Below, piece after piece: positions 22,953 to 61,743 of a stretch of 64,000 nucleotides of DNA; position 1 is the first letter of the stretch; every line of letters starts with the position of its first letter. Source of the stretch: Limisphaerales bacterium (GTDB lineage Bacteria; Verrucomicrobiota; Verrucomicrobiia; Limisphaerales; UBA11358); assembly GCA_025360325.1 (NCBI GenBank), contig JANYCI010000013.1:13544-77543 (forward strand). Direction: 5' to 3'. The translations under genes were made by a program, and so were the position numbers. The notes beneath the pieces were generated by a model, which saw only the letters and a list, made by a program, of their open reading frames with translations, did no database searches and was not told where the DNA came from.

Positions 22953-22992
22953 AAAACGGCGGCGGGCAAATTGTCCGCCGCCGTTTTTGTAT
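22953..22992. terminator. bidirectional rho-independent terminator
   Basis: aaaacggcggcgg-gcaaattgt-ccgccgccgtttttgtattttt between convergent stops at 22932 (+) and 23000 (-). A perfect 10-bp GC stem is flanked by an A-run and a T-run. Confidence 0.85.
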
Positions 22993-22999: not shown

Positions 23000-25477
23000 T
23001 CACGGCACGACTTCGATCTCGTAAAACTTTTGCGGCGCGGGCGGCGCGTTGGAGATGTCCGTGAACGAAGTCGTCAGGCTGTTGGCCGAAATGACGCCGC
23101 TGACCGGCGTGAACGGCTGCATCAGATTTGTCGTGGCCAGCACCAGATAATTTTGCCCCGGCGTGCTGCTCCACACCACTTGCTGCGCGTTGCTCGTCAG
23201 CCCGATGATGACCAGCGGTGGCGCGACGATGACCGTCCGCGCATCGGACAACACCGCGACGTTGTTGCTGAAAACAATTTGTAGAACATTGGTGCCGGGC
23301 GTCGTCACCGCCCAGTTGTAAAGCAGCGAACGAAAACCAGAACAGCCCGCGATCGCGCCAACGGGCCGCAAAATGTAATTAGCAGACGGCTGCAATATTC
23401 CATTGATCGTGAGTTGGAACAACGAGGCCGTGTTCGTGGTGAGCGTGGAGGTGAAACACACTTGCACGAGATAGGTGACGTTGTTGGAAATCACCGCGCC
23501 ATCAGCAGCGGGGCTGGAAAATAGCACGAGCGGAGGCGCAGCAGCGGTGCGAAACAGCAATGAATACGGCGCGTAAAGTGTTTTTCCCGAAGCGGTGGCG
23601 AAGGCAGAATTGCTCACGGTGATGGTGATGTTCGTCGCCGCCGCGAAGCCGCCGACGGCGGGCGTGAACGTCATCACATCGCGCGCAGGCGACCAACTGA
23701 ACGTGCCACTGACGGACGGCACGGCGCGGAACGCGGACTGCACGCTGTTGGTATTCATCGGCTGGCTGAATTGTAATACCACAGGCAGCAGCGGCGAAAT
23801 GTTCGTCGCGCTGTGCATCGGAAAATTGGTGACGACGACGGGATCAAGCGGGAGCAGTTGCGTTTGCGCGAGAAAAATTTTTGCGGTCATGGCCGGCACG
23901 GAAATGAGCGGTGTCTGCGGCCCGGCGAGGACAGAAATTATTTCGTTCGGGTTCAGCAAATTCACCAGCGCGGTGCCGGGCGCATAAATCGTCGGGCGGC
24001 TGGCGAGTGTTTGCGCGTTGCTCGCAGTGTTGAAGACGACAAAAACTTCCTGCGTGCCGAGCCGCCGCGAGTAGGCAAACAGACCAGCGGCGCTGGAATT
24101 GTTCCACTGGTTGACGTGTGAGCCGAGCGAGAGAGCGGGATAGAGGCGACGGAAATTATTCAACTTGGCGATCTGTAAAAAAAGCGGATGCGTCATATTA
24201 AAACTGTCCACGCCAGACTGACCGGCATCTTTGAACTGCCCGGCAAACATATCCTCGCGATTATTCGGATCGGTGCCGCCGTTGAACGCCTGCTCGGTTC
24301 CTTGATAGACGCAGGGAATGCCGCGCGAGGTGTGCAGGAACGTGAGCGCGATGGTGAGTTTGTTCGTGTCGCCATTGGCGTTGGCGGAATTAAGGAAACG
24401 CGTCGTGTCGTGATTGTCGAGAAAGGTGACGAGTTGGTTGAGCGTGGCGGCATCGTAGTTCGCGGCAAGGTTATTGAAATGATCTTCGATCTGTTTCGTG
24501 TTACCACCCCGCTCGAAAACATTTTGCGCGGCGAAGAAGAGCGGGTAGTCGAGCAACGAATCCAGCTTGAACGCGCCGCCGCCATTCGTGCCGGAATAGC
24601 TGCCGACTTTTGTATCCGAGCCGTCGAACACTTCACCGAACATGAAAAAATTCGGCTTGCCGTTAGTCGCGGCGGCGCTGTGGATGCGCGGACACCAGTC
24701 TTGCCAGAAACCCATTTCGGCGTGCTTCACCGTGTCCACGCGGAAGGCGTCGAAGCCCGCGTTCGTGATCCAATAATTATAGACCGCCGCTAGGTTCGTG
24801 CGGACGTAAGCGGACTCGGTGCGAAAATCATCAAGGCCGCTCAATTCGCCAAGCTCCAACTGTTGCGTGCTGCTGTAATCAATGATTGCGCCGAAGTTGT
24901 GAAAAAAATTCGTGAGCGATGGATTCAATGCGTTAGTGTTGAACGGCGCGGCGTATTTTTTGGACGAGTTCGCGTAAGTCAAATTGTAGCCGTTCGTGGT
25001 GAACGCGGTGTTACCATCAATGTTGTTGAGCGTGCTACCGTGATTCACCACCACGTCTTGAATGACGAGCAAACCCTTGGCGTGCGCGGCGTTCACCATC
25101 ACTTGCAGATTCGAGAGCGTGCCCCAGTGCGGATCTACGGAATAAAAATCCGCGCCGGAGTAGCCGTGGTATTCGCCGCTGCCGTTTTTGACGATGGGCG
25201 AACTCCAGATGGCAGTGAAGCCTAGTGCCTTGATGTAATCCAATTTCTGTTCGATGCCGCGAAAGTCGCCGCCGTGAACACTCGCGCCGTTGGCGGCATT
25301 GTAGGAACCAGAGGCGTTGTTGTTCGCGGCGTCGCCGTCAAAAAAACGGTCGGTAAAAATCTGGTAGATGCTTTGGGTCTGCCAGAATGTGTTGGGCGCG
25401 GATTGCGACCACCCCCGCAACGCCAGCAGTAAAAGCAGCAGCACGAGCGCGGAAAGTATTTTCGGAGGCACTTCCAA
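23000..25477 (-). CDS. GH13 alpha-amylase-family enzyme with C-terminal Ig-like domains and the shared C-terminal tail
   Basis: GH13 regions DVVVNHGS, FDAFRVDTVKH, FMFGEVFDG, FLDNHDTTRF. The signal peptide is leucine-rich. The start is TTG 25477 or in-frame GTG 25471. Confidence 0.9.
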   Translation of the reverse strand: MEVPPKILSALVLLLLLLALRGWSQSAPNTFWQTQSIYQIFTDRFFDGDAANNNASGSYNAANGASVHGGDFRGIEQKLDYIKALGFTAIWSSPIVKNGSGEYHGYSGADFYSVDPHWGTLSNLQVMVNAAHAKGLLVIQDVVVNHGSTLNNIDGNTAFTTNGYNLTYANSSKKYAAPFNTNALNPSLTNFFHNFGAIIDYSSTQQLELGELSGLDDFRTESAYVRTNLAAVYNYWITNAGFDAFRVDTVKHAEMGFWQDWCPRIHSAAATNGKPNFFMFGEVFDGSDTKVGSYSGTNGGGAFKLDSLLDYPLFFAAQNVFERGGNTKQIEDHFNNLAANYDAATLNQLVTFLDNHDTTRFLNSANANGDTNKLTIALTFLHTSRGIPCVYQGTEQAFNGGTDPNNREDMFAGQFKDAGQSGVDSFNMTHPLFLQIAKLNNFRRLYPALSLGSHVNQWNNSSAAGLFAYSRRLGTQEVFVVFNTASNAQTLASRPTIYAPGTALVNLLNPNEIISVLAGPQTPLISVPAMTAKIFLAQTQLLPLDPVVVTNFPMHSATNISPLLPVVLQFSQPMNTNSVQSAFRAVPSVSGTFSWSPARDVMTFTPAVGGFAAATNITITVSNSAFATASGKTLYAPYSLLFRTAAAPPLVLFSSPAADGAVISNNVTYLVQVCFTSTLTTNTASLFQLTINGILQPSANYILRPVGAIAGCSGFRSLLYNWAVTTPGTNVLQIVFSNNVAVLSDARTVIVAPPLVIIGLTSNAQQVVWSSTPGQNYLVLATTNLMQPFTPVSGVISANSLTTSFTDISNAPPAPQKFYEIEVVP

Positions 25478-25722
25478 GCTTAATCATTTTTTCCCAATCC
25501 TGCTTTCGCACAAAGATGCGATGGATAATTTGCGGAGCGCAGCTATGTTGTCCCGTGAACCCGAACGCTGTCTTGCGCCAAAATTATTTTTTGCCGTCGT
25601 CGGCAGGTTCAAAATTAAAATCCATCCTATGAATAAAAAACAAATCCTGCTGGGTCTGGGCGCAATGTTGGCCGCCGCGTTGACCGCCAGCGCGCAACCT
25701 TACTTATGTAGCCGGCAGCGGC

Positions 25723-27210
25723 GTGACTCCGTCGTGGACGCCCGGTGATGCCGGTCTGCAACTGCTCGGCTCGCCGTTTACCCTTACCACATCCACCGGC
25801 CCGGCGGACACCTATCACGAATTCAAAGTCACGGGTGCCACCTGGAGCGATCCCAACTATCCCGGCGTCAACAACGCCAAAATCAAAAGCAACGCAAACG
25901 GTTCCAACACATTTTATTTTTATCCCGGCGTCAATGCAGACGGCTGGAGCCCGTTGAACAACCGCGTGGGCTATGCCGACCCGGGCAACATGAGCTTTGA
26001 GATCATCGGCGGGTTCGCCGGCTGGAGCGCGGCAACGAACTTGAATCCAATCGGCAACGGAGTTTTCTCCAACAGCATCACCGGCATCGCGCCCGGCTCC
26101 TACGGCTTCAAGTTCCGCACGCCTGGCACCTGGGGCGAAGTAGCGTTTGGCGCAGACTTTCAAAATTTCGGCGCGGACGGCAGCTTCACCGTTTCCAGCA
26201 ATACGCAGGTGCTGCCCGTGGTGCTGGATCTGCCGAAAGGCCGCTGGCTCATTGGCACGCTGGCCCCGGCACCGGTGACCAATCATGTGGTGTTTGCGGT
26301 GGACATGACTTACCAGATTCAACTCAATTTATTTACCCCCGGCTCCTCGGTATTCGTTGCGGGCGCGTTCAACGGCTGGCCCGGAACCGGCCCCGCCGCG
26401 CTCGCGCTGACCAACTTTCCCGCCTACAACGGCGGCAGCAACACAAACATTTACTACGGCACGAACCTATTCGTCGGCGCACCCGGCGCGGTGGTGACGG
26501 CATTCAAATACACCCAGAACGATGTGAACGCGCAAAACGGCGGCTACGAAACTTCCAATGACCGTTCGTTGACGCTGACAGCGGCCAACGGCGCGGTGCT
26601 AAAGCTGCCCGTGGGTGTGTTCAGCGACCTTTATTCGATTGATGTTTTGAACGTGGACACCACGGTGACATTCCGTGTGAGCATGACCAACGCGGTGGGC
26701 ACAGACGCCCATGTGTTTGACTCGGCCAATGACTTGGTCAATATCAACGGTGATTTCATTCCTTGGGTCTCATGGGATCCGATTTCATTGAACAACTATC
26801 TGTTGGCAAATAACCCGCCGGGCACCTTGGTCTATACGTTCACCAAGACGTTTCTGGCCGGTCAGCCGCGCATCGTCACCTACAAATATGCAATCAATGG
26901 TCTGGATAACGAAGCTGGGTTTGCTCAAGACCATAAGCGCTACATCCGCAGCACCACCGGCACCTACATTTTGCCGCTGGACACGTTCGGCACCCAGACG
27001 GTGGAGCCGAAATTTGGCAACCTCGTCATCGCCAAGCCGACCGGCGGCGTATTGCCGGTGACGTGGACTGGCTATCCGGGCGTAAGCCTCCAGACCAGCA
27101 CGAGCCTCACCGGTTCGTGGAGCACCGTGGGAAACACCGACGGGCAGAGCAGCACCAACTGGCCCGCCACCGGCAACGGCAACCGTTACTTCCGCCTGAT
27201 TCAGCCGTGA
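25723..27210 (+). CDS. multi-domain carbohydrate-binding (starch-binding CBM-like) secreted protein; N-terminus apparently frameshifted
   Basis: Repeated beta-sandwich modules, e.g. [24 protein letters not shown]...KYTQND...[11 protein letters not shown] (CBM20-like by eye; the family call is tentative). A signal peptide MNKKQILLGLGAMLAAALTASAQ starts at 25629 but in a different frame. Confidence 0.75.
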
Positions 27211-27217
27211 TTCCAAC

Positions 27218-27251
27218 AGCCGGGCGGATGAGTGAAATCATCCGCCCGGCT
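27218..27251 (+). other. perfect 14-bp stem-loop between the CBM gene and the pseudopilin gene (possible attenuator/terminator)
   Basis: agccgggcggatga-gtgaaa-tcatccgcccggct, 8 nt after the stop at 27210. No T-run follows. Confidence 0.6.
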
Positions 27252-27263
27252 CCCAGCAAACGT

Positions 27264-28181
27264 ATGAACATTGCAGTCCACCCCCATAAAAACCGGCCGG
27301 CGGGTTTTACCCTCATTGAGCTGTTGGTAGTCATCGCCATCATCGCGATTCTGGCGGCGATGCTGTTGCCGGCACTGTCCAAGGCCAAAGAGCGGGCGCA
27401 GTTAATTTCATGCTTGAGCAACTACAAGCAATTGGGGCTGGCTTGGATCATGTATTCGGGCGACAACAATGAAAAGCTCGTCACCAATTCCGACCGCAAC
27501 GTGGGTGGTAACAAGGTGAACTGGATTTGTCCCTACGGCGTGACTATGGACGGAACCGCCAATATCAAGAATACTGAAACCCTCTACCTCACCGTGGATC
27601 AGCCGGTTCTGGGAACTGCTCTCATGGGTCAATACGTCGCCAAGTCGCTCAAAATTTTTGTCTGCCCTTCCGACCATTTCTTGAGCGCGAATCAAAGCGG
27701 CTTTGCCAACCGCATCCGCAGTTGCGCGATGAACGGAGCGATGGGCGATGGCGAAAAATGGTTCGGCCTCAAGGCCGACGGCTCGCCCAACGGTGGCCGC
27801 AGCCAGATGCCCACTTTTTTCAGCGCCAAAAAAAGCGGCGACCTGCACACGCCCGGCCCCAGTGATTGCTGGGTCATCACCGACGAGCACCCGAATAGCA
27901 ACGATGATGCGAGCCTCTACGTTGACCCTGCCGCGTCCAACGGGAACGGCACCACCTTCACCGAGCTTCCCGGCAGTATGCACGCCAGTTCCGCCGCGCT
28001 GGTGTTTGCCGATGGCCACTCGGAAACCAAGCGCTGGAAGGGTGCCGTCACGCTGACAAAATTTAACCCCAGCCTCACCGGTTGGATTAGTGGTTCAAGC
28101 TGGCTGTCAGGGATCAGCGGCTTGGATGCCGACAGTAAAAAAGACTTGCAGTGGCTGGCGGAACACACGCCAAAAAATTAA
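27264..28181 (+). CDS. prepilin-type N-terminal cleavage/methylation domain protein, H-X9-DG family (DUF1559-like pseudopilin)
   Basis: [29 protein letters not shown], and near the C-terminus [12 protein letters not shown] (exactly H-X9-DG). The ORF-track start at 27063 overlaps the upstream gene, so ATG 27264 is preferred. Confidence 0.88.
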
Positions 28182-28233
28182 AACACATTTTCGTGCGGTT
28201 GCGTTCACCGCGTGAATCGGGCATTTATTTTCC

Positions 28234-29616
28234 ATGAAATTTTCCGTCTCCTCCGGGCTGGTTCTGCTGCTTTCCATCACGGCTATTTTTCTTCCCACTG
28301 GTCTGCGGGCAGATTCGGATGCCGGTCACGCCCCCGCCCGCCCTTCCCCCGACTGGTTGCGCTCGGCTACGGTTTATGAAGTTTTTCCGCGCCACTTCTC
28401 ACCCGCCGGAAATCTCGTGGGCGTCACCGCGAAACTCGATGAGTTGAAAGAACTCGGCGTAACCGTGCTGTGGATGATGCCCATCCATCCCATCGGCGAG
28501 AAATTCCGCAAAGGCGATTTTGGCAGCCCCTATTCCATCAAGGATTATTACGCGATTGATCCGAACTACGGCACGCTCGACGATTTCAAAAAACTCGTGG
28601 ACGGCGCACATCAGCGCGGCATGAAAGTCATCATGGACATCGTGGCCAACCACACCGCGTGGGACAGCGTGATGATGACAAACAAAGATTTTTACAAACA
28701 GGACGCGCCCGGCCACGTCATCCCGCCCGTGCCGGATTGGACGGATGTTGCCGGCCTGAATTACACCAACGCCGCACTCCGCGAATACATGATTACCATG
28801 CTCAAATACTGGATCACGACGTGTGACGTGGACGGTTTCCGTTGCGACGTGGCCCACATGGTGCCGGTGGATTTTTGGGAACAAGTTCGCGACGCCCTCA
28901 TCCAAGTCAAACCCGACATCATGATGCTTGCCGAAGCCAGCAAGCCCGAATTGCTCACCAAGGCGTTTGACGTGGACTATTCTTGGCCGTTGCTCGCCAC
29001 CTTGAACGACGTGATGCTCCGCAACGCACCCGCCGTAAAAATCCGCCAGTCGTGGGAAGAAAGTTTGCAGCAGTTTCCGCAAGGCGCGCTGCACTTGCGA
29101 ATTTCCGACGACCACGACGAGGCTCGCGCCGTCGCTCGTTACGGCATCAACGGCGCGCTCGCCGCATCCGCATTGATGTTCATGCTCGACGGTGTTCCCC
29201 TGCTCTACAACGGCATGGAAGTCGGCGACGCCACCGAGTCCGGCGATCCCGCACTCTTTGATAAGCTCACCATTTGCTGGCATCCCAAGGACCGTCCCGA
29301 ACTTCGCAAAACTTACCAGCAGCTTATCCAATTGCGGAAAGACCACGCCGCCCTTCGCAGCGACCGCGTGACGTGGCTGGAAAATTCCGACGCGGATAAA
29401 ATCATTTCCTTCACGCGCACGGACGGCCATGAAGAATTTCTCGTGATGATCAATTTTTGCAACCGGCCCGTGAGCGGCTCGGTGAAGCTACTTAATGTGG
29501 CATCGTTTAAGCCTGTGAACATTTGCGGTGTCAATGACACCGCAACAGGAGACTTGCCGCGTTTCCAATTGAACGGTTTCGGCTGGCGCATCTATCACCG
29601 CGCAATTTCAAAATAA
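28234..29616 (+). CDS. GH13 alpha-amylase-family enzyme (secreted)
   Basis: VYEVFPRHFS, GVTVLWMMPIHP, DIVANHTAWDS, VDGFRCDVAHMVP, MMLAEA, plus a signal peptide. Confidence 0.9.
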   Translation: MKFSVSSGLVLLLSITAIFLPTGLRADSDAGHAPARPSPDWLRSATVYEVFPRHFSPAGNLVGVTAKLDELKELGVTVLWMMPIHPIGEKFRKGDFGSPYSIKDYYAIDPNYGTLDDFKKLVDGAHQRGMKVIMDIVANHTAWDSVMMTNKDFYKQDAPGHVIPPVPDWTDVAGLNYTNAALREYMITMLKYWITTCDVDGFRCDVAHMVPVDFWEQVRDALIQVKPDIMMLAEASKPELLTKAFDVDYSWPLLATLNDVMLRNAPAVKIRQSWEESLQQFPQGALHLRISDDHDEARAVARYGINGALAASALMFMLDGVPLLYNGMEVGDATESGDPALFDKLTICWHPKDRPELRKTYQQLIQLRKDHAALRSDRVTWLENSDADKIISFTRTDGHEEFLVMINFCNRPVSGSVKLLNVASFKPVNICGVNDTATGDLPRFQLNGFGWRIYHRAISK

Positions 29617-33577: not shown

Positions 33578-34447
33578 TTATCTTATTATTTGGTTTTCCT
33601 CAAATTCAAGCGGCATTTTCGTGATGGACTGGATTTCCACGTTGCGAAAAAAACATTCGCCGCCTTCCGTTTGAAGACAGATTTTTCCGGAAGTGATCGC
33701 TGCCGGTGCGTCGCCATCGAGCCGCTGCGCGTGGTGCAGGCGCATAACGACCTGGCCGTTGACGACGTGGATGCTGTCGCCATTGAAGGTCATCAGGTCG
33801 AGCGTGTTCCATTCGCCCTTTGGCTTTTCGGCATCCACGCTGTGCGCGCAGTGATTGCCAATCGGTTTTTTCTGGAGAAAAAATGTGTTCGTGCCGGCGG
33901 GATCGTAGCGCCACAATTTTCCGTCCAATCGAGCGGGGACGGTGATTTGCGAGGCGAGCGCATAGAGGTCGCCGAACTCGTTCTGGCAGATTTGAAATTC
34001 AAACGAACGCGGCCACGTCTTGTCGGCCAGACCGGCATCGCTGTGGCAGAAATAAAGCAGGCCGGTGTCGAAGGGCTTGTTCGTTTTTTTGCTCCACTTC
34101 AAGTCGCCCCACTTGACTTGCAATCGCAGATGAATGTTGGTGAACGTCGCCGTGGTCATCATCATGCCAAAGCCCTGGCCGGAAATGTGGATCGTCGGCA
34201 CGCCGTCGAGGTTGGTCACGGTGAAGACGTGGAGCGGGTCGCGGTTTTTGCCGAGGGCTTCGAGATAGACGCCGTTCGTGCCGCGTGCGAGTCCCGGCAC
34301 GTCCCACGCGGGGTCGGGCAGATTCATCATTTCGGTGTCCCAACCAGCGAGGTCTTTGCCGTTGAACAATGCCTGCCATTCGGTGTCGGCGGCTAGGGCA
34401 ATGTCCGCCACAAACAATCCAGTGATCAGAAAAACGATGAGGCGCAT
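33578..34447 (-). CDS. DUF1080 (3-keto-disaccharide hydrolase-like) secreted protein
   Basis: WQALFNGKDLAGW..., KPKGEWNTLDLMTFNGDSIHVVNGQVV, ICLQTEGGECFFRNVEI. Signal peptide from MRLIVFLITG. Confidence 0.75.
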   Translation of the reverse strand: MRLIVFLITGLFVADIALAADTEWQALFNGKDLAGWDTEMMNLPDPAWDVPGLARGTNGVYLEALGKNRDPLHVFTVTNLDGVPTIHISGQGFGMMMTTATFTNIHLRLQVKWGDLKWSKKTNKPFDTGLLYFCHSDAGLADKTWPRSFEFQICQNEFGDLYALASQITVPARLDGKLWRYDPAGTNTFFLQKKPIGNHCAHSVDAEKPKGEWNTLDLMTFNGDSIHVVNGQVVMRLHHAQRLDGDAPAAITSGKICLQTEGGECFFRNVEIQSITKMPLEFEENQIIR

Positions 34448-45740: not shown

Positions 45741-48700
45741 TTGCCGCGCGCGGCCTTGTTTTTACCTTTGTTGGCAGACATGAGCGCGGCTTCGCAAGAT
45801 TTCACGCTCAACAACAGCAACATTCTTGGTGCCAATCAAATTTGGAATGTGGCCGCCGGTCGAATCCTTTCCGTTGCCAACGCCGGTCATCCGGGATTGA
45901 TCAAAGGCACGGCGAGCCTGACGAAAAATGGCAACGGCACTTTGTTATTGCGCGGGTTGAACAGCTATAGTGGCGGAACGATTGTGAACGGCGGCATTTT
46001 GCAGATTAACAACGGAACGACCGGCACGGGCACCAGCGGCACCAACAGCGCCGGCATCGGCGGCATGACCCTCAACAACGGCACCACGCTGCAATATGTC
46101 GCCGCCGTGAACATGGGCAATACGCTCACGGTCAATGGCACCGTATTCGTGGATATGAATTTAATTGGCGGCAGCACGCTGGCGAATGGGTCATGGATTA
46201 GCAGCGGCGGCACGGTGATCATCACGAACGCCATTTCCGGCACCACCTTCACCATCGGCGGCAACGGTGTCGGCGGTGGAAACATGAACAACTTTACTGG
46301 CGCAGTCGTGATGGCCAGCGTGACCAGTCAAGGGGTTCCGCTGACAAACAGTTTGCGGCTCAATGATAGCGGCGGAAACAACAACGTCGGCAATGCCAAT
46401 GCCTCCTTTGATCTTGGAAACGGCGTGGTCAACCTGACCGCGCGAAATCGCTCCGGCAGCACGATCAGTTTGGGCGCATTGAGCGGCGGTTCGAGCACTC
46501 TCGTGAAAATTGGCAGCAGCGGCAGTGCCGGCACCACTTACTCGGTTGGCGGACTGAATACCTCAACCACCTTCAACGGAATTTTTGATGGCACGGGAAC
46601 GACCGCCGGAATGTTTCTGGCGCTGACCAAAGTCGGCAGTGGTGTTTTCACGCTTACCGGAACCAATACCTATAATGGGACGACGGCGATCAACGCGGGG
46701 GCGTTGCAGGTTGGCAATGGCGGCACTTCCGGCCAGCTGGGAACTGGCGGCGTGGTCAATAATGCAACGTTGATCTTCAACCGCGCCGATGATGCTGCGG
46801 TCGGAAATGCCATCAGCGGTTCGGGAACCGTAATCAAAACTAACGTGAATACTTTGACCTTGAATGGCACCAACAGCTCCTCGGGCGCGACAGTCATCAG
46901 CCAAGGCACTTTAGCTCTTGGGGTTTCTGGGTTGATGTCTTGCCCGGTCTTCGTCGCCAGTGGTGCGAGGTTTGACATCTCGCAAAATCCCGCCTTCACC
47001 TTGAATCAGATTTTATCCGGCTTCGGCACGGTGACGGGATTGGTGACAGCGGTGGGCGGAACCATCAGTCCCGGAGGCAGCGGTGCGGCGGGCACGCTGA
47101 ATTTTTCAAACAACGTTACGGAAACGGGCAACGTCAATCATCAATTTGAATTGTCCAGCGTCGGCGGCACTAACGATCTCATCAACATCGTCGGCGACCT
47201 CACCGTTACGGGCACAAATATCATCAGCTTGAGTCATTTTGGCGGCGGAACGATTCCGAACGGCACTTACACGTTGTTCACCTACAGCGGCAATCTCAAT
47301 GGCGGCGTCACTAACTTTTCGGCCAGCGGCGTCGGCAACATCGCAGTGGTGACCAATGATGTGGCGAATCAAATCCGCGTGGTCATCACCCAGACTCCGC
47401 GTGGGGCAACAAATTTATCCTGGGTGGGTGATGGCGGCGCGAATAACTGGGCGGTTGGTGTCAGCAACTGGATCAGTGGAGCGACCTCCTTTGCCTTTCA
47501 GACCGGCGACAGCGTGCGCTTCGATGCAGCCGGCGTCGCGAATCCAACGGTGAATTTGAACGTCTCGGTCTCGCCGACCGCAGTGGTGGTGAGCAATACG
47601 ACGGCCTACACCATCACTGGTGGCGGCAACATTGCCGGGTTGACTGGATTGATTAAAACCAACTCCGGAACTTTAACCGTGCTGACAACCAACAGTTACT
47701 CCGGCCCGACGATCATTGGCGGCGGAACGCTCGTGGTCTCATCGGTCGCCAATGCCGGTTCGCCTTCGGGAATCGGTGCGGCCAGCAGCAACCCGACCAA
47801 TCTGGTGTTCTTTGGAACGACCTTGAACTACAACGGCGCAGACAGCGCCACTGACCGGGGTGCAACTTTGAATGGAACCGGCGGCATTATTGGCGTAGTG
47901 CCGGGAGTCACGCTTGAGCTGGACGGTGCCCTTACCGGTCTCGGTGCGCTGATAAAATCGGATACCGGCAATTTGACCATCAATAACAGCGTGCTTCCAA
48001 ACACCTACAGTGGCGGCACGATTATCAGCAACGGCGTGCTCGTGCTCGGCGGCAACAATGCCAACAGTTCCGGGCTGGGCACTAACTCGGTGACTTTCTA
48101 TGGCGGCACGCTCCAATTGTTTGGCTATAATGGCAGCACCGCCAACAACTACCTTTCGCCGCAAAACCTTTTGGTGGTGCCAGCGGGCCAATCGGGAACC
48201 GTGCAGATGTTTCCGCGCGGGCCTAATAACGCTTCCGGGCTGGCCAGCAAACTGGTTGGCGCAGGCACCATGAACTTGGTGGTGAATTATGTTCGCGATA
48301 ACATGGGCGGTGACTGGTCCGCCTTCACCGGCTTGATCAACGTGACCGGAAAAAATATTTCCGGTGATGAATTCCGCATTGATAATGCCGCTGGTTTCTC
48401 GAATGCCGTCATCTACCTGAACAGCGGTGTGATAATGGATCGCGCCAATACGGCGAATGCCACGATTGATATCGGCGAGCTGGCCGGGATCAATGGAGCC
48501 ATCATCGGACCAGGCACCGGCAGTGCCGCCAATCCCACCTGGCGCGTGGGCTGGAAGAACACCACCAGCTCCTTCGCTGGAACCATTGCCAATGATGGGA
48601 CGGCTTCTTCTATCACCAAAGTCGGCACTGGCAAATGGATTTTGTCGGGACAAAATACTTACAGCGGTTCCACCATCGTGAGCAATGGGGTGCTGGCGCT

Positions 48701-49448
48701 CGTGAATGATCCGGTGTCGTTGACGGATGGTTCCATCGGAAGCAGCGCGAACATCTTGATCAAATCCGGGGCGTTCTTGGATGTCATTGGCCGCAGCAAC
48801 GGGACGATGCCGCTGAATTCCGGTCAAGTCATCGGCGGCGAGGGAACCCTTCGCGGCATTCTTGACACCACAGCGGGTGGCACGGTTTCGCCCGGCGGCG
48901 GCATCAGTGGTGCGGTTGGCACATTGACGGTAACTAATTCCGTCAATCTCGGCGGCACGGCGTGGATGAAACTGAATCGTGGTGCCAGCCCGAACAGTGA
49001 CAAACTGTCCGCTCCACACATCGCCCTCGGCGGCGCGCTGTTGGTGACAAACATTGGTGCGGCGCTGCACGTCGGCGACAGTTTCACCCTGTTCAATGGC
49101 ACTTTGTCAGGAACGTTCAATGGCAATGTGACGTTGCCCAACGGTTACACTTGGAATACCAACTCGCTCGAAACGAGTGGAACTATTTCCGTGACCGCCG
49201 TCGCCGCCCCGCCGGTCATCAGCAGTGTGGACTATAGCCAATTGTCCAGCGGTATGCTGGCGTTCAATGCCACCGGCGGCGCACCGGGCGGCGCGTTTTC
49301 CATCCTGACCAGCACGAACCTCTCGTTGCCGCTGTCAAGTTGGACCACGGCGGCGACCGGTAATTTTGATGGCAGCGGCAATCTCACCGCCTTTTCCGTG
49401 ACGGTGAATCCGGCATTGCCGCAAAGTTTCTTCATACTAGCTCAATGA
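45741..49448 (+). CDS. autotransporter-associated beta-strand repeat (PATR) giant protein with the shared C-terminal tail
   Basis: Dozens of ~30-aa units, e.g. [30 protein letters not shown] and [33 protein letters not shown] start 45741. The signal peptide is weak ([18 protein letters not shown]). Confidence 0.85.
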
Positions 49449-49456
49449 TGCGGGAG

Positions 49457-49490
49457 AAAAAAACGCCCCGCGCACACCGGGGCGTTTTTA
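49457..49490 (+). terminator. rho-independent terminator after the PATR gene
   Basis: aaaaacgccccg-cgcacac-cggggcgttttt: a perfect stem followed by a T-run, 10 nt after the stop at 49448. Confidence 0.85.
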
Positions 49491-49527
49491 CTGTCAGATA
49501 ACATTCAATCGCGAAAAAGCAGTTGCC

Positions 49528-50307
49528 ATGAAAACAAAAAAACCGGCGGGATTCACGTTGATTGAATTGCTTGTGGTGATCGCCATCATTGCGATTCTTG
49601 CGGCCATGCTTTTGCCTGCGTTGTCGAAAGCCAAGAGCAAGGCATTGCAAACATCCTGCCTAAGCAACCTGAAGCAGATGCAGCTCTGCTGGCACATGTA
49701 TGCGGATGACTACAACGATGTCATGGCGTTGAATCCTAAAAATTCCACGACGAATGCGTGGATTTTGGGAAGTATGCAGAATGCTGCGGACGCGGTGAAT
49801 CTCACGCTGCTGCAAAACGGACAATTATATTCCTACAACAAAAGCACGGGCATTTATCGCTGCCCGGCAGACATCAAGGCTGCGCCGGGAGGCATAGCAT
49901 TTCGCGTCCGCAGTTATGCTATGAATTGCTACATGAGCGGAGAGGATGTCGGCGGGACTCACTACAGTTTGACCGGTTATCATGTGAACAAAAAAACGTC
50001 CCAAATCACCACGCCCAAACCGTCCCAGGCGTTTGTGTTTGTTGAGGAGGCGGAATTTTCCATTGATGACGGACACTTTGGTTTTACTCCCGATGGTTCG
50101 CCCGGACAGGGACCGATCAATGTCTGGCTGAACATTCCCGGGCTCTGGCATCACGGCGCGAATTTTTCCTTCGCGGATGGCCATGTGGCTTTCACCAAAT
50201 GGGTCGAAGGTTCAACGCTGGCGCTCAACACCATCACGTCGTCAGACCAATCAACCGCCCACACGGACTTGCGCAATGTGCAATCCATTCTCGCGACGAA
50301 AAATTGA
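49528..50307 (+). CDS. prepilin-type N-terminal methylation domain protein, H-X9-DG-like pseudopilin
   Basis: [31 protein letters not shown]-terminal [13 protein letters not shown] (H-X8/9-DG). Confidence 0.88.
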
Positions 50308-50316
50308 CAGTGACGT

Positions 50317-51177
50317 ATGAAAAGTAAAAAGCCGGAGGCATTCACCCTGATCGAACTCCTCGTCGTCATCGCCATCATCGCGATTCTGGCGGCGATGCTG
50401 CTGCCGGCATTGGCGCGTGCCAAGAGCCGCGCCATCACCGCCCGCTGCATCGGCAACATGCACCAGATTTCTACTGGCTGCGCGATTTACTCGACGGATT
50501 ACAACGACTGGTATCCAGTGTGGTCGGATCATCTGTCCAATCCCGGCGGCCATCCGCTGAATGAAATTCACAGTCAAGGCTACGCCTACTGGCTGGTCGG
50601 CCCCAAGACTGTTCCGACCGGCGTTACGATTTCGCAAAACGCGGACAAGAGCGTTTATGATTTCCAAAACCTCGGTCTGCTCTATTCCGGGAATCTGGCG
50701 GGCGACGGCCACATTCTTTACGACCCGGCTTTTAATGCAGCCAATTCCACGAGCCTGCCGGACATCAACACCTACTCGAAGCCATCTTTTCTTTCGCCGG
50801 ATGCTGGCGGCCAGGTTTATTCCAGCTACCTGTTCAATCCGCGTATCGTGAATGCCGCCGGTTATCTGGCCGGCAATCCAAAAGATCCCGCCACGCTGCG
50901 GCTTATGCCCAAGCAAAGCAAGGCGCAGCACAAACTGTTCATGGTGGATTATGTGCAAACGCCCGATCTCGGCGTGCCGCCAACCTTCAGCGCCACATCT
51001 TTTGCCCATCATCCATCCAAGGGCTTCAGTGTTCTCTTTGGTGATGGCGCGGCCAAATTTATTTCCAGCCAGTCCGCTTTGAAGATAGTTCTCTCCGGCA
51101 CCTTCACCACTGTCCAAACGGTTCAGTCTTGCACGGATTATGACAAGCTGTTCGACGCGCTTGAAGCCAGCGAGTGA
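50317..51177 (+). CDS. prepilin-type N-terminal methylation domain protein (divergent H-X9-DG-like pseudopilin)
   Basis: [31 protein letters not shown]-terminal [14 protein letters not shown]. It starts 9 nt after the previous pseudopilin gene. Confidence 0.85.
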
Positions 51178-56005: not shown

Positions 56006-56289
56006 CACGCAAAATTCAAAGACAAGATTCAATGCGCCGCACGCGCAAAAGTTTTTACGGCTCGTCGCCATCAACACAATTGGCGATGCCCCCGCTGGAA
56101 GTAACCATCACTGGCGATTTTCAATCCTGCGTCCGCTGGTAAGTTGATCGGCATAAACACCCGTTCAATCAGCCATGCTGTCATCCAGCCGCTTGTGCCA
56201 GCCGCACGCGGTTTGTCTTGCACGGGCTGATTAACGCCTGTCGCAAAGCATCATCAACCCCGTCACAAAACCAACCGACCCATACAAAA

Positions 56290-59200
56290 ATGAAACCCAA
56301 CACATCCATTTGCATTCGAAATATTTTACTGATGAGCGGTCTGCTTTTGCTGGCGGGCGTAGCCAATCTTGAGGCGGCTACTTTCACCACGGTGGCGGGC
56401 GCCAGCGGCAACTGGAGTTCCGGTGCCGTATGGGCTGGCGGTGGGGTGGCTGGCGGGGTCGGCAACATTGCGCAGTTGGGAGCGGGCGGCAGCACGTTCA
56501 CGCTGGATATTGCCACGAACATCGGAGTGATCAATGACGGTCAAGCATCGGCGCGCGCTTGGGCCATCAATGCCAGCGGCTCAATTGCAATAACGATGGA
56601 CAACACCGGCAACGCCGTGAACAACCCGGCCGGAACCCTCAACGCCTACATCGGCGAGTCCTCCAGCGGCACGATGACTTTCAACCCAAACATCATCATC
56701 CAAAACACGGATCTGGATTTTGCCAATACCGGGTCCACCACCCCCACTTTGGCCATTGGCGTTTTGGGGACGTCCACCATCACCGCCACGAGCGCGCGGA
56801 ATCTTTTCATCCGGCAAAATCAAGCCACCACCACCAAAGCCATCAACATCAACAGCAGCATCGGCGGCAGCGGCAGCAGCGTCATCACCATTCAAAACGT
56901 CGGCACTGGCGGCGGCGTTTCAGCCATGAACCTGAACGGCGTGGTCGGGCCAAATGCAGGCGTCGTCCAGAACAGTGCCAATTCGATTCTGTCGTTGAAT
57001 AACGCGGCGAACAACTACACGAACAGCACGATCATCACGCTGGGCACCTTGAGATTGGGCGCGGCCAATGCCGTTCCGAGCGCTAGCAGCGTGGATGTCA
57101 CTGGCACATTCAATTTGGTCAGCTTCAGTGACACCATCGGCGCCCTGACCGGTGCTGGCACGGTAAACGCATCGAGCGGCACGCCCACCCTGACAGTCGG
57201 TGGTGGCGATGCCAGCGGCACGTTTAGCGGCATCATCCAAAATTCTGGCGGCACAATGTCTGTGGCCAAGACCGGCAACGGCACGCAGGTTTTGAGTGGC
57301 GTGAATACTTACGGTGGCACCACGACCATCAACGGCGGTTTCCTCAACGCTGGTGTGGCGGATGCCGGCACCGGCCCGTTCGGCAGCGGCGGCAGCATCG
57401 CGTTCGGTGGCGGCACGTTGCAATACTCCGGCGCAAATAATTTCGATTACTCCGCCCGCTTCAGCACGGCAGCGAACAATGCCATCAGCATTGACACCGC
57501 CGGACAGGCCGTGACTTTTGCCACCGCGCTCACCAGCAGCGGCGGCAGTTTGAAACTCACCAACTCGACCGGCACCGGCACGCTGACGCTCACGGCGGCG
57601 GCAACTTACAGCGGCAACACCGCCATTAATGGTGGCACGTTGAGCTTGAGCGGCAGCGGCGCGCTGGCGAGCAACTCCACGGTGAGCATCGGTGCCGGAG
57701 GCACGTTTGATGTCTCTGCGCTGGCGAGTCCCTACACGCTCGGCAGCAGCGCAACTTTGCGCGGTAGTGGCTTCGGCACTTTGGTCGGCACCAACGCGGC
57801 CCGCATCGTCGCCGCTTCCGGTGGGATTTTTGACGCGGGTTCGCAACCGATTTCTCTGACGTGGAACGGCGCATCATCCGGCACGGACAACACGCACCCG
57901 TCGCTCCTCGTTTCGCAAGGCACGCTGAACTTGAACACCAATCCGATCACGGTCGTAGTGCCGGGAACGGCGTTGGATGTCGGCGTTTACACTTTGATTT
58001 CCGCCCCGGCTATCAGCGGAGTTGCGCCCAATCCCACGCCGTCCTACACCGGCGGCAACGGCGTTGGTCTTGGAAAAGTCGGCGTGATTTCTGTCAGCGG
58101 CTCCACCGTGATCCTAACAGTTAGCGCGGCTGGAGGAACGGTTGGCACCTGGGCCAACGATGTTGACGGCAACTGGACGGACGGAACCAAATGGAGCAGC
58201 AACCCTAACGTGCCGCATCTGGCGGGCGACGCCGCCACGCTAGGTATCGGCTCGGCTTTACGCACAGTCACGCTGAACGCGAATCAAACCGTCAGCACTT
58301 TGTCTCTGACCAATGCGAACTCATTCGTCATCGCAAACAGCGGCAAAGCGCTGACGCTCGACAACACCGGCTCCGGCGCGTCGGTCAATGTCATTGGCGG
58401 CACGGCGAACAACATCCAAACCGCCGTGGCCTTGAAGGACAACGCCGTGGTCACTGTCGGCAGCGGCAAGTCGCTGGCATTTTCTGGAACCGTCAGCAAC
58501 ACCGCCGCCGCCAAAACCATTTTGTTCAACGGTGCTGGCACGAACATTCTTTCCGGCGCCAACAGCTACGGTCCGGCGGCTGGCACCGTGGGCACCACCG
58601 TCAACGCCGGTGGCACGTTGCGCTTGGGCCACAGCAGCGCGCTCGGCGCGGGTGATTTGAGCGTGTCCGGCAACAGCACATTGCAGGCGGGCGCGGCGGT
58701 GAGCGTCGGCAATAACATCACCATCGCTGACACGACTACGGTGGACAGCAGCGGAAATAATTTTGCTTTGGGCGGCGTCATCAGCAGCGCGGGCGGCCTT
58801 ACAAAAACCGGCAACGGCACGCTCGCGTTGAACGGCAATAATACTTACACCGGCAACACGACGGTGAACGGGGGCACGTTGAGCCTTTCATCGCCGAACA
58901 ATTTTCTGAACAGTCCGAGCATCATCCTCAACGGCGGCGGACTGCTCGGCACCGCAACTTTCACCGCCGCCAACAACATCGGCATCGGCGCAGCCTCCGG
59001 CGCAGTCGGCACGAATGCGTTGATTGACGCGGCCAGCGGACAGGTCGTCACGTTGAGCGGCGTCATCGGCACGGCGGGCAACGGCGGTGGGAACGGACTC
59101 ATCGTCAACAGCGGCGCGGGCAACAACGGCACGCTGGTTCTCAGCGGAGCGAATACATTCAACAGCACGACGGTCATCTCGAACGGCACATTGCAAGTTG

Positions 59201-60855
59201 CGAACTCGCTTGCGTTGCAAAACAGCGGGTTAAATTACAATACGGGCACGCTGATCTTCGATGGCAGCATCACGGCGGCCACGCTTGCTGGAATAAACTC
59301 CACTAACAGTTTGAGAACTTTGGCGCTGACCAACACTGCAGGCGGCGCGGTGGCATTGACGGTGGGCGGAAATAATGCGCCTGTCGTTTTCACCGGCAAT
59401 TTGAGCGACGCTGGTTCGCTCATCAAAGCTGGCAGCGGCACACTGACGCTCAACAATCCCACTTACACCGGCAGCACCACGATCTTCGGCGGCTCGGGCG
59501 CGACGACCATCAGCGGCGGAAATTTCGGTTCGCTCGCAAGCGCGATTACGATTGGTGCCAACTTCTTCCTGACCGGCGGCACGGCCACGGCCTCCGCGTT
59601 CAACCTGGCCACCGCTGGCGGGCAGACCGGCGTGGGCGCAACCATCAACGGCACGGCGAATCTCACAAACACGGCGACAACCATCGGCAGCGGCGGCAAC
59701 ACGGCAGGAGCCATGACCCTCAACTCTGCTGGCAACGTGAATCTGGGAGATGTGAAGGTCAACAAGGATCAGGGTGGCACCACCAGCGGCCTGATCATCG
59801 CAAGCGGAAATGTTTTCGCGACCAGCGTCAACGTCGGCCAAAGCGGCACCGCTGCGAGGGCGTCCGACATGACCATTACCGGCGGAACGTTGACGGTTGC
59901 TGATGTGACGCAGACCGGCAAGTTTGCCGTCCACTGCGGCGCGGGCAATGGCACCCTGACGGTGAGCGGCGGCGCGCTGAATTATCTGGGAACAGATGGA
60001 TTGCAAATGTCCATCGGTGCCGGTCCCAGCATCGCTGCCATCATCGGCGGCACGGCTACGCTCTCCGGCGTCACGCTTAATTCTGGCAGCACCGCTACCA
60101 CATCCACTCTGACGGTGGCCGGCACGAACAATCCGACCCTTTATTTGGGTAGCGTGGGGCTGATCATCAATCTGCCAAGTCCCACCGTGGCAGCTACATT
60201 TGGTAACGGCACCATCGGTGCCTTGGCCGACTGGGCGTCTGAGGCGCCGATCACGCTCACAAATAATCCTATCTTCAAAGCCGCCGATGCCGCGAACGTG
60301 CCGCATAGCATCACGTTGAGCAATGTTCTGTCCGGCACGGGTAATCTCACCAAAACCGGCAATGGCACTTTGATCTTGATGGGTGCGAACACTTACACCG
60401 GCAACACCATCGTCAGCGCGGGCACGCTGGATTTGTTGCAGGCATCGCTCTTCACCAATTCCACCGTCTCGGTTTCCAACAGCGCGACCTTACGGCTGGA
60501 TTTCTCCGGCACAAACATCGTGGCCGGTTTGATTCTGAATGGCGTCAGCAAGGCGGCAGGCGTTTATTATAACGGCACCGATCCGACGTTCCTGACCGGC
60601 ACTGGATACATTCAAGTTCAGCCGCTTGTTTCTCTAGTGCCGACAAACATCACCACGACAGTTTCTGGCAGCACCCTCACGTTGTCATGGCCAGCGGATC
60701 ACCTCGGCTGGCATCTGCAAATCCAGACCAACTCGCTTGCTGATGGCTTCGGCACGAATTGGGTCACGCTGCCCGGTTCGGACACTGTGACTTCAACGAA
60801 CATGACTATTGATCCCGCCAATGGCAGCGTGTTTTACCGCATGGTGTATCCGTAA
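56290..60855 (+). CDS. autotransporter-associated beta-strand repeat (PATR) giant protein with the shared C-terminal tail
   Basis: Signal MKPNTSICIRNILLMSGLLLLAGVANLEA. Many PATR units (VAKTGNGTQVLSGVNTYGGTTTINGGFL, LTKTGNGTLALNGNNTYTGNTTVNGGTLSL). It ends ...GSVFYRMVYP. Confidence 0.9.
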   Translation: MKPNTSICIRNILLMSGLLLLAGVANLEAATFTTVAGASGNWSSGAVWAGGGVAGGVGNIAQLGAGGSTFTLDIATNIGVINDGQASARAWAINASGSIAITMDNTGNAVNNPAGTLNAYIGESSSGTMTFNPNIIIQNTDLDFANTGSTTPTLAIGVLGTSTITATSARNLFIRQNQATTTKAININSSIGGSGSSVITIQNVGTGGGVSAMNLNGVVGPNAGVVQNSANSILSLNNAANNYTNSTIITLGTLRLGAANAVPSASSVDVTGTFNLVSFSDTIGALTGAGTVNASSGTPTLTVGGGDASGTFSGIIQNSGGTMSVAKTGNGTQVLSGVNTYGGTTTINGGFLNAGVADAGTGPFGSGGSIAFGGGTLQYSGANNFDYSARFSTAANNAISIDTAGQAVTFATALTSSGGSLKLTNSTGTGTLTLTAAATYSGNTAINGGTLSLSGSGALASNSTVSIGAGGTFDVSALASPYTLGSSATLRGSGFGTLVGTNAARIVAASGGIFDAGSQPISLTWNGASSGTDNTHPSLLVSQGTLNLNTNPITVVVPGTALDVGVYTLISAPAISGVAPNPTPSYTGGNGVGLGKVGVISVSGSTVILTVSAAGGTVGTWANDVDGNWTDGTKWSSNPNVPHLAGDAATLGIGSALRTVTLNANQTVSTLSLTNANSFVIANSGKALTLDNTGSGASVNVIGGTANNIQTAVALKDNAVVTVGSGKSLAFSGTVSNTAAAKTILFNGAGTNILSGANSYGPAAGTVGTTVNAGGTLRLGHSSALGAGDLSVSGNSTLQAGAAVSVGNNITIADTTTVDSSGNNFALGGVISSAGGLTKTGNGTLALNGNNTYTGNTTVNGGTLSLSSPNNFLNSPSIILNGGGLLGTATFTAANNIGIGAASGAVGTNALIDAASGQVVTLSGVIGTAGNGGGNGLIVNSGAGNNGTLVLSGANTFNSTTVISNGTLQVANSLALQNSGLNYNTGTLIFDGSITAATLAGINSTNSLRTLALTNTAGGAVALTVGGNNAPVVFTGNLSDAGSLIKAGSGTLTLNNPTYTGSTTIFGGSGATTISGGNFGSLASAITIGANFFLTGGTATASAFNLATAGGQTGVGATINGTANLTNTATTIGSGGNTAGAMTLNSAGNVNLGDVKVNKDQGGTTSGLIIASGNVFATSVNVGQSGTAARASDMTITGGTLTVADVTQTGKFAVHCGAGNGTLTVSGGALNYLGTDGLQMSIGAGPSIAAIIGGTATLSGVTLNSGSTATTSTLTVAGTNNPTLYLGSVGLIINLPSPTVAATFGNGTIGALADWASEAPITLTNNPIFKAADAANVPHSITLSNVLSGTGNLTKTGNGTLILMGANTYTGNTIVSAGTLDLLQASLFTNSTVSVSNSATLRLDFSGTNIVAGLILNGVSKAAGVYYNGTDPTFLTGTGYIQVQPLVSLVPTNITTTVSGSTLTLSWPADHLGWHLQIQTNSLADGFGTNWVTLPGSDTVTSTNMTIDPANGSVFYRMVYP

Positions 60856-60893
60856 AAATTTCGGTCGGGGTTGATCGAAAAATGGGTTAGGTT

Positions 60894-60920
60894 CCGGCTG
60901 GGGCGTCAGGCTCCAGCCGG
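60894..60920 (+). other. stem-loop between the PATR gene and the pseudopilin gene
   Basis: ccggctgg-ggcgtcaggct-ccagccgg (8-bp stem), 39 nt after the stop at 60855. The T-tail is weak. Confidence 0.45.
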
Positions 60921-60951
60921 CTTTGAATAACACACGGCTAAAACCACTCTG

Positions 60952-61743
60952 ATGAAAAATTATCAAAAAAATATTCCGTCTCGTGCGGCATCCGGCTTCA
61001 CGCTGATTGAACTGCTCGTCGTCATCGCTATTATCGCCATTCTCGCCGCGATGCTGCTGCCCGCGCTGGCCAAGGCGAAAGCCAAGGCGCAACAGACCTA
61101 TTGTCTCAACAACATCAAACAGCTCAATCTGGGCACGACGATTTATGTGGGCGACTATGCGGACACTTATCCCGGTTCTGGCTCCCGCAGTGCCGCCGTG
61201 GCCAATGGCGGGGTGAATCTTCCGTCGGACTGGATTTATTTCATGAACGCACCCTCGGCACCGCTGGCCAAAAGTCCGGTTTTGGTTACGATCGGGGTCG
61301 GGGCAAACACAAATTTTTTCCGTTGTCCCATGGATCTGGACAGCCCGACGCGCACCGCCGGCTACCCGGCCAGCTATTCTATGACCAGTTTTGATGCGCC
61401 CACGACCGACCCGTCCAATCCGCATGGCATTACCTCATCCTTTTCCCTGACGGGTCCTCAATATCCTTTCAAGCAAACCCGCGTGCGGAATCCAGTCAAC
61501 AAAATTCTCGTGGCCGAGGAGGTGGCTTCCCTCACAGCCGCTGACAACCCGGTGGCCAGCAATACTCAAGTCATTGATGACGGACGTTTCGTGCCGACTT
61601 CCCGCAACGCCTACACCAACGCCAAAGATTTGCTCACCAGCCGACACAGCAAAAGGGCTGATGTCGGATTTTGTGATGGTCACGTCGAGCCGGTTTTTTG
61701 GATGATTGGCACCAATCAGGCGAACACGTTTGCCGATTATTAA
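60952..61743 (+). CDS. prepilin-type N-terminal methylation domain protein, H-X9-DG family pseudopilin
   Basis: [31 protein letters not shown]-terminal [12 protein letters not shown] (exactly H-X9-DG). Confidence 0.88.

Follow-up and report, generated by a model that had tools for sequence, protein, structure and literature searches.

A starch-binding protein gene and a pilin-like H-X9-DG gene form a conserved pair in verrucomicrobial starch loci

Why should a gene for a pilin-like protein stand between the gene for a starch-binding protein and that for an amylase? The question is raised by a starch-type gene cluster in a 64,000-nucleotide stretch of DNA from a Limisphaerales bacterium (contig JANYCI010000013.1; we call the whole stretch the window, and positions refer to it unless another locus is named). 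The cluster encodes two enzymes of the amylase family GH13, here called GH13A and GH13B, a non-catalytic starch-binding protein, and a protein of the H-X9-DG/DUF1559 family with a prepilin-type N-terminus. We find that the invariant core of such loci is a two-gene unit, made up of the binding protein and a dedicated pilin-like partner, under a conserved palindromic operator. The four genes of the cluster are laid out as follows:

23000-25477, minus strand: GH13A, 825 amino acids (aa), with PF00128 (E 3e-57) and Ig-like Big_5 domains
25723-27210, plus strand: starch-binding protein, non-catalytic, a 495-aa open reading frame (ORF); the mature part really starts near 25698
27264-28181, plus strand: H-X9-DG/DUF1559 prepilin-type protein, 305 aa
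28234-29616, plus strand: GH13B, 460 aa, with PF00128 (E 9e-45) and a Sec-type leader

Content, order, strands and coordinates agree with those in an earlier note on this DNA, which had been made from the sequence alone. The three plus-strand genes are separated by gaps of 53 nt and 52 nt. The note had seen a pseudopilin at the centre of the cluster where an obvious transporter or binding pair was missing, and had found no regulator either. For the window the absence that it described is real: a domain search of the cluster and its flanks finds no transporter or regulator gene in the starch cluster or adjoining it. SusC-like TonB-dependent transporters and SusD-like domains are absent from all cluster and flank genes, and also from the conserved neighbour families and the annotated loci of relatives that we examined. 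ABC transporter genes are found neither in the cluster nor in the relatives' loci. Whether the pilin-like gene belongs to such a locus at all, and whether it takes the place of these parts, are questions that relatives can answer.

The pairing of binding protein and pilin-like gene

We looked at gene neighbourhoods in two directions. In the forward test, a 10-sequence alignment of the binding protein served as the query, and 21 genome loci anchored on this protein, with 10-kb flanks and 351 kb in all, were taken from Verrucomicrobiota-type metagenome-assembled genomes (MAGs). A homologue of the binding protein, 33-79% identical to the window copy, is encoded in 20 of the 21. The next gene downstream on the same strand is an H-X9-DG gene in 18 of these 20, typically at a spacing of about 35-110 bp; one locus has none, and in one the H-X9-DG gene lies directly upstream (L013, where the pilin-like gene precedes the binding-protein gene, positions 3-3000 of that locus). 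Apart from these 19 partner genes, the 351 kb contain no ORF with a prepilin motif. The partners' heads share 35-64% identity with that of the window protein, a level that the three paralogues inside the window do not reach (at most 33% over 140 aa); by this measure the partners are orthologues and no mere paralogues. In the reverse test, five H-X9-DG orthologues were picked independently of the binding-protein match list, and a homologue of the binding protein is encoded directly upstream in all five loci.

The plainest alternative is that nothing but chance has placed these genes side by side. H-X9-DG genes are numerous (the window alone has four prepilin-type genes in its 64 kb, roughly 7% of its genes), and the head by itself has matches in 1765 representatives of clusters at 50% identity (E <= 0.001), only 7 of them at E <= 1e-30; within this very large DUF1559/H-X9-DG family the starch-type subfamily makes up a small share. 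One of so many genes could simply have landed between starch genes. Because the two genes are neighbours in 19 of 20 loci in one direction and in five of five in the other, in diverged genomes, with unrelated flanks and always with a member of the same orthologous subfamily, the pilin-like gene is no chance neighbour: synteny refutes the idea, and we leave it next to no probability. Protein identities of 33-79% exclude that near-identical strains were counted repeatedly, and prepilin-motif ORFs other than the partners themselves do not occur in the loci. Homologues of four genes that flank the window cluster (for the 1140-aa protein, RecN, TlpA-like and LepA proteins described below) were searched for and none was found in the 21 loci; the pair is kept while its surroundings change. 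In one locus (L030) the pair even stands alone with its operator, with no GH13 or other amylase gene as a neighbour. Neighbourhood statistics were the test that the earlier note had proposed for its own idea, and by them the placement of H-X9-DG genes is clearly non-random; its view of the pilin-like gene as a true component of the cluster stands. We hold with high confidence that this gene is a functional, co-inherited part of the starch locus.

The starch locus is widespread in Verrucomicrobiota subdivision 3 (Limisphaerales-type MAGs). Three of the contigs (L005, L011 and L018) are labelled Candidatus Sulfotelmatobacter, Methylacidimicrobium fagopyrum and Bifidobacterium sp. despite a typically verrucomicrobial locus, and the labels of L005 and L018 at least look like binning or labelling errors.

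Does the pilin-like protein then stand in for the transporter and the regulator that the window cluster lacks? In the relatives the locus is fuller. When the neighbour genes are clustered, two more prove to be conserved upstream of the pair, in 12 of the 20 loci: one encodes a HisKA_3 kinase, the other a response regulator of the LuxR type. Of the 19 anchored loci with the pair, 10 have GH13B after the H-X9-DG gene; a gene for an MFS transporter comes after GH13B in several loci, and a gene for a CBM20-GH77 amylomaltase follows the transporter in at least L022 and probably in L001. In L028 a GH77 gene lies upstream of the kinase gene. These arrangements give the ancestral order as kinase, regulator, (GH13A), binding protein, H-X9-DG, GH13B, MFS transporter and GH77, and the window copy is a reduced version of a normal, regulated starch locus. 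Because the relatives' fuller loci have both a transporter and a regulator alongside the pair, the pilin-like protein is no stand-in for either. The "instead of" in the earlier note has to be given up: the relatives' loci carry the kinase, regulator, MFS and GH77 genes, and the window keeps the operator through which the locus would be regulated. This element is placed as follows:

25507..25520, divergent intergenic region: palindromic operator core CGCACAAAGATGCG, 124 nt upstream of the binding-protein start codon

The core lies about 30 nt from the start of GH13A, which is on the opposite strand, and this is the only exact match to it in the 64-kb window. Across the anchored loci the palindrome takes the form CGCA-N6-TGCG (consensus ACCGCA-N6-TGCGGT). 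Of the 21 loci, 20 have it within the 220 nt that precede the start of the binding protein; in 19 of those 20, the window included, it has a spacer of the CA(C/T)A(A/T)A type and lies 79-143 nt upstream. In relatives a LuxR-type response regulator is encoded beside the locus, and the palindrome is probably where it binds. The response regulator for the window operator must be encoded elsewhere in the genome. A kinase and regulator gene pair present in the window at 52188-55455 was considered as the local starch regulator and rejected: the two proteins resemble the relatives' pair only in their generic C-terminal domains, the kinase has a different sensor domain (Reg_prop/Y_Y_Y), and both belong to a neighbouring module around a PATR-repeat protein, to which we return below.

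At its borders the window cluster meets unrelated housekeeping genes, for RecN, a TlpA-like thioredoxin and LepA. Its left edge is marked by the following element, likely a bidirectional terminator:

22953..22987, between the TlpA-like gene and the 3' end of GH13A: long, G+C-rich hairpin with a 16-bp stem and with A and T runs on its sides

A scan for promoters and terminators inside the cluster returned the counts expected from shuffled sequence. Just upstream of RecN, 16816-20238 encodes a secreted protein of 1140 aa with three divergent InlB B-repeats (Flg_new_2) and Big_7; it does not have the C-terminal tail motif described below. A LacI-family regulator is encoded at 5184-6251, 17 kb off the starch cluster and beside a gene for a xylose-isomerase-like TIM-barrel protein; we see nothing that ties it to the cluster.

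The four proteins and the frameshift

The starch-binding protein belongs to a family with 295 matches, nearly all of them unnamed Verrucomicrobiota proteins of 520-560 aa. No catalytic domain was found in it. The earlier note had called it a multi-CBM protein, that is, one with several carbohydrate-binding modules. For the window copy itself Pfam gives little ground for this, the sole match being AMPK1_CBM at 19.8 bits, below the cut-off of 26.8; the family as a whole does support the description. Among 28 members, at E <= 0.01, X25_BaPul_like is matched in 15, AMPK1_CBM in 12, CBM_20 in 5 and CBM_48 in 3, and the closest relative (protein P0002) lies above the cut-offs for both X25 (34.3 versus 27) and AMPK1_CBM (31.1 versus 26.8). 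A Sec signal peptide is present in all 18 relatives examined and ends in QAQ followed by PY in 14 of them. The leader ends in AQ followed by PYY, without a cysteine: the protein is not a lipoprotein. At the other end a C-terminal tail domain is conserved, which in the window copy ends in YFRLIQP; the Phe-Arg-Leu of the tail is invariant in 28 homologues.

Reading of the DNA upstream of the 495-aa frame shows that the signal peptide of the window copy is encoded in another frame:

25629..25748, plus strand: short ORF starting at ATG 25629 with the binding protein's Sec signal peptide, MNKKQILLGLGAMLAAALTASAQ followed by PY

An extra T at 25704/25705 (TACTTATGT here, TACTATGT in the closest relative, L001) separates the signal peptide from the mature part, and deleting one T in silico restores a precursor of 526 aa. 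The identical insertion occurs in three Logan assemblies of different runs (SRR22198310, SRR20627842 and SRR23617308); because it is shared among them, the insertion is a real feature of the lineage and no assembly slip. The remaining 495 codons of the gene are intact. The binding protein may be non-functional here, or newly inactivated; put in terms of the gene, the frameshifted copy has either been inactivated very recently or is expressed in an unusual manner. The statement that all four products of the cluster have leaders can be kept for GH13A, the H-X9-DG protein and GH13B, and has to be withdrawn for the binding protein, whose signal peptide is put out of frame by this 1-nt insertion.

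Both enzymes match the GH13 family and keep the catalytic Asp/Glu/Asp. Read directly, conserved regions I-IV are DVVVNH, AFRVDTVKH, FGEVF and FLDNHD in GH13A, and DIVANH, GFRCDVAH, MLAEA and SDDHD in GH13B. GH13A starts with a hydrophobic leader and closes with a tail domain that ends in KFYEIEVVP; GH13B has no tail domain. Their leaders and domains lead us to predict that GH13A is an outer or surface amylase and GH13B a periplasmic maltodextrin hydrolase.

The remaining protein is the pilin-like one. The ORF as listed starts at 27063, and the Met that precedes the prepilin motif is at 27264. From there a basic class III leader runs to G-1, after which the mature protein begins FTLIELLVV, with both F+1 and E+5 present on direct reading. 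The N-terminal domain of prepilins is found by two models (PF07963 at 36.7 bits, cut-off 21.2; TIGR02532 at 32 bits, cut-off 16.3), and DUF1559, which Pfam names SBP_bac_10 (PF07596), at 30.9 bits versus 23.3; the DUF1559 match covers residues 40-159 only, corresponding to positions 2-126 of the 268 in the profile. The motif that gives the family its name can be read directly as H240-X9-D250-G251, with H240 conserved in at least 90% of an 80-sequence alignment and D250 invariant. The model of the H-X9-DG C-terminus, TIGR04294, does not match 27264-28181 at E <= 0.01; it does match the window paralogue at 49528-50307 (20.7 bits, cut-off 19). The GspG-K and PilA models all remain below their cut-offs, and no model of GspG-K, PilA or ComG is matched outside the N-terminal 56 residues or fewer (GspG 32.1 bits against 88.85, GspH 29.2 against 80, GspI 21.6 against 44.35).

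Structure prediction depends on how much of the family is put into the alignment. An AlphaFold2 model from 51 close orthologues is poor (predicted local distance difference test score, pLDDT, of 66) and gives no Foldseek matches; one from the 80-sequence alignment, which includes a paralogue family, reaches a pLDDT of 88.7. The latter has an N-terminal helix of about 50 residues (17-67), a loop-rich head with five short strands in a small beta-sheet, and a C-terminal helix. Foldseek against the PDB finds for it only the pilin helices of FimA and PilA, at E 0.7-1.2, and a profile of the head has no match among PDB sequences at E <= 10. The idea of a periplasmic binding protein, which came from the Pfam name SBP_bac_10, was dropped, as the model matches pilin helices only and gives no binding-protein-like match. 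Polar residues conserved in the head are D137, R150, R152, E208, D214, D215, H240, D250 and H252.

The N-terminus gives a different picture of conservation. The segments that we compared in the four prepilin-type genes of the window are these:

27303-27380, 49549-49626, 50338-50415 and 60994-61071: identical protein, divergent DNA

Over their first 24 mature residues the four paralogues do not differ at all. Because this holds even though the DNA differs at 15-19 of 78 positions, it speaks for strong selection at the level of the protein and against gene conversion. It argues that all paralogues have to fit one shared peptidase, platform or filament core.

The two-gene design beside other clusters

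The two-gene design is not confined to starch, and the window itself holds two further examples of it:

45741..51177, plus strand: PATR-repeat protein of 1235 aa with a tail ending in SFFILAQ, then two tandem H-X9-DG genes (49528-50307 and 50317-51177)
56218..61743, plus strand: PATR-repeat protein of 1545 aa with a tail ending in VFYRMVYP, then an H-X9-DG gene (60952-61743)

The first module forms the end of a GH29/GH2/GH29/DUF4450 cluster. The second is divergent from the genes for the Reg_prop/Y_Y_Y sensor kinase and response regulator at 52188-55455. In the loci of relatives of the paralogue at 49528-50307 the order of the first module is kept: after genes for a Reg_prop/Y_Y_Y kinase and a regulator comes that for a PATR protein (1100-1300 aa), next an H-X9-DG gene or two, and then, as additions, genes for carbohydrate-active enzymes (CAZymes), namely GH88, GH43, GH76 and pectinesterase.

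The PATR proteins and the starch-binding protein have in common an unnamed C-terminal domain of about 70-80 aa, which ends in two aromatic residues, any residue and an aliphatic one, followed by a few more residues. No Pfam or NCBIfam model matches this domain at E <= 1. It is present in 24 of the 26 genes that lie directly upstream of a first H-X9-DG gene, as against about 20 of about 316 other ORFs, and about half of these other tail-bearing ORFs are amylase-family proteins of starch loci, GH13A-type ones for the most part. The tail is absent from GH13B and the other enzymes. In the window the tail endings are FYEIEVVP, YFRLIQP, SFFILAQ, FYRMVYP and FYRLQLP, and the proteins concerned are listed here:

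25250-25477 (minus strand), 26990-27210, 49200-49448, 60620-60855 and 36330-36540: five predicted secreted tail-bearing proteins

The tail domain may be a sorting or docking module.

The cluster that runs into the first PATR/H-X9-DG module is a second CAZyme cluster of the window, at 33578-45724. It encodes two proteins of the 3-keto-disaccharide hydrolase family, two GH29 alpha-L-fucosidases, a GH2 enzyme, a tail-bearing protein of 333 aa without a Pfam match, and a DUF4450 protein of 1125 aa. Its target is probably a fucose-containing glycan.

Proposed workings and known systems

How might a pilin-like protein serve the use of starch? The reading that we prefer, tentatively and at something short of an even chance, is that it displays or holds the starch-binding protein at the cell surface. 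A prepilin peptidase would cut the H-X9-DG protein after G-1, and the invariant hydrophobic alpha1 helix, with its Glu5, would allow it to enter the filament of a shared machine, of the type II secretion or type IV pilus kind, encoded elsewhere. The cluster-specific head would dock the co-expressed binding protein, possibly by way of its C-terminal tail, with the result that starch is held at the surface. There the tail-bearing GH13A would cut it, GH13B would trim the products in the periplasm, and in relatives the MFS transporter and GH77 would complete uptake and use. In favour of this reading we count the conserved pairing and its operator, the recurrence of the design, the invariant N-terminus, the pilin-like build of the model, and the precedents in a Verrucomicrobiota alginate locus and in planctomycete fibres described below. 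Several observations weigh against such a display system. Among the larger window ORFs that were scanned there are no genes for secretion or pilus machinery. In one of the anchored loci, L017, GH13B comes straight after the binding-protein gene and there is no pilin-like gene (11662-11705). Co-evolution of the binding protein and the head, measured in mirror-tree fashion from pairwise identities, is weak: Spearman rho is 0.43 over all pairs, and 0.27 in an 11-locus subset versus about 0 for controls. The head, of about 240 aa, appears in the model unlike any known pilin head or carbohydrate-binding fold. Finally, with the in-frame signal peptide of the binding protein lost, the system may fail in the very organism in which we describe it.

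Surface display has a bolder form, in which the filament would be a retractile uptake pilus; by analogy this would fit the dextran-binding fibres of planctomycetes (PMC5394234). Extended to the whole family, H-X9-DG/DUF1559 proteins would be interchangeable, substrate-specific subunits of one shared filament in bacteria of the Planctomycetes-Verrucomicrobia-Chlamydiae (PVC) superphylum, each paired one-to-one with a tail-bearing glycan-binding or adhesin-like protein. Jointly the two would make up a capture apparatus in place of SusC/D, possibly with uptake driven by retraction. We regard this general claim as rather unlikely.

Two other explanations would give the pilin-like protein a place in the locus and none in a capturing filament. 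In type II secretion, minor pseudopilins form a tip that contacts the cargo, and the H-X9-DG protein could be a cargo-specific minor pseudopilin of this kind: at the tip of the type II pseudopilus it would push its tail-bearing cargo (the binding protein, perhaps also GH13A) through the secretin and take no part in the final capture structure. Such an adaptor is favoured by the recurrence, in unrelated clusters, of a one-to-one pairing with a large secreted protein that bears the tail, and the invariant N-terminal helix would suit a shared machine. The authors of the Verruconatronum study, moreover, suggested type II export of alginate lyases from a locus with a pulG-like gene (PMC13274419). 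We nevertheless think a secretion adaptor unlikely: in the type II systems known, a single fixed set of pseudopilins serves many cargos, GH13A bears the same tail yet is not always beside the pair, and no GspG-K model is matched beyond the first 56 residues at most (32 bits for GspG where 88.85 are required).

The other explanation dispenses with a filament altogether. The leader would serve as a signal for export and anchoring, and the head, on the periplasmic side of the membrane, would bind maltodextrins or the sensor kinase, making the protein a tethered binding protein or a co-sensor. Archaeal sugar-binding proteins with class III signal peptides, which make up the bindosome, set a precedent for this. 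It would agree with the Pfam name of DUF1559, SBP_bac_10, and with the kinase and regulator genes beside the pair in 12 of 20 loci and the MFS transporter in several, and the conserved polar residues of the head could form a site for a ligand or a metal. The model of pLDDT 88.7, however, is unlike periplasmic binding-protein folds, or any PDB chain beyond the pilin helix, and the head profile has no sequence match in the PDB. A membrane anchor also has no need of 24 identical residues and Glu5 across paralogues with little or no similarity in their heads (33% over 140 aa at best), and the tightest linkage of the pilin-like gene is to a secreted binding protein, neither to the kinase nor to a transporter. 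Such a periplasmic component seems to us decidedly unlikely.

Why the answer matters can be seen from the size of the family. Few paralogue families of Planctomycetota and Verrucomicrobiota are as large as DUF1559/H-X9-DG, which has no assigned function; in Planctopirus limnophila it is the largest of all, with 68 copies and two essential members (PMC10632474). Our literature searches, including one for prepilin together with Kiritimatiellota, found no functional study of DUF1559/H-X9-DG. Bacteria of both phyla degrade complex glycans without the SusC/D of Bacteroidota, which raises the question of how they capture glycans at the surface and take them up. A loose association of pseudopilin genes with glycan clusters is already on record (PMC13274419); we found no earlier description of the operator, of the tail domain that the upstream proteins share, or of a starch-binding protein so strictly paired with pilin-like orthologues. 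As a case on which to learn what the whole family does, the pairing with its defined operator is a simple one: the substrate is cheap, the partner is clear and a regulator is predicted. The same design stands beside pectin- and fucose-type CAZymes and PATR adhesin-like proteins, so a result obtained here would probably generalise. If the reading as a shared filament were true, it would give a molecular identity to the glucan-binding fibres of planctomycetes.

It remains to compare the locus with systems already described. In the bindosome of the archaeon Sulfolobus, as here, a pilin-type leader is found on proteins of sugar acquisition and serves neither motility nor adhesion; unlike here, these are binding proteins of ABC transporters with a periplasmic-binding-protein fold, and neither that fold nor an ABC transporter is detected in our system.

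A second comparison is with planctomycetes, in which pili-like fibres at crateriform structures bind gold-labelled dextran (PMC5394234). These are glucan-binding fibres in the PVC superphylum, and P. limnophila is one of the two organisms studied; any tie of the fibres to DUF1559 or to starch-binding proteins is our own suggestion.

A parallel in gene content comes from Verruconatronum alginivorum (Verrucomicrobiota, Opitutales), which has a pulG-like pseudopilin gene with 67 paralogues in its alginate locus, and in which a separate pseudopilin outside the two gene clusters is over-expressed on alginate (PMC13274419, 2026). A prepilin-type gene inside a polysaccharide degradation cluster, and with many paralogues, is what the two loci share. 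Substrate and gene order differ, no conserved one-to-one pairing with a binding protein is reported there, and its authors discuss only a possible export of lyases by type II secretion.

With the GspG-K pseudopilins and type IV pilins the H-X9-DG protein shares its class III leader (G-1, F+1, E+5), the long and hydrophobic helix at the N-terminus and, in the model, a head with a small beta-sheet. It differs from them in that its gene sits in a glycan cluster, outside any secretion or pilus operon, and in that its family is present in several copies in the window and in dozens per genome in the cited isolates.

The last comparison is with the Sus system of Bacteroides. Measured against it, our locus has neither a TonB-dependent transporter nor a SusD-like gene and does not qualify as a polysaccharide utilisation locus as defined by a SusC/SusD pair; the binding protein is no lipoprotein, the pilin-like gene has no counterpart in Sus, and a two-component pair is found instead of SusR. 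The likeness is in the division of labour: an outer GH13 amylase, a non-catalytic starch-binding protein of several modules, a second GH13 enzyme with a leader, presumably periplasmic, and, where relatives have the locus in full, a regulator of its own and a transporter in the inner membrane. Within this scheme the pair of binding protein and pilin-like partner would fill the functional place that in the starch loci of Bacteroidota is held by the surface binding proteins and the SusC/D pair.

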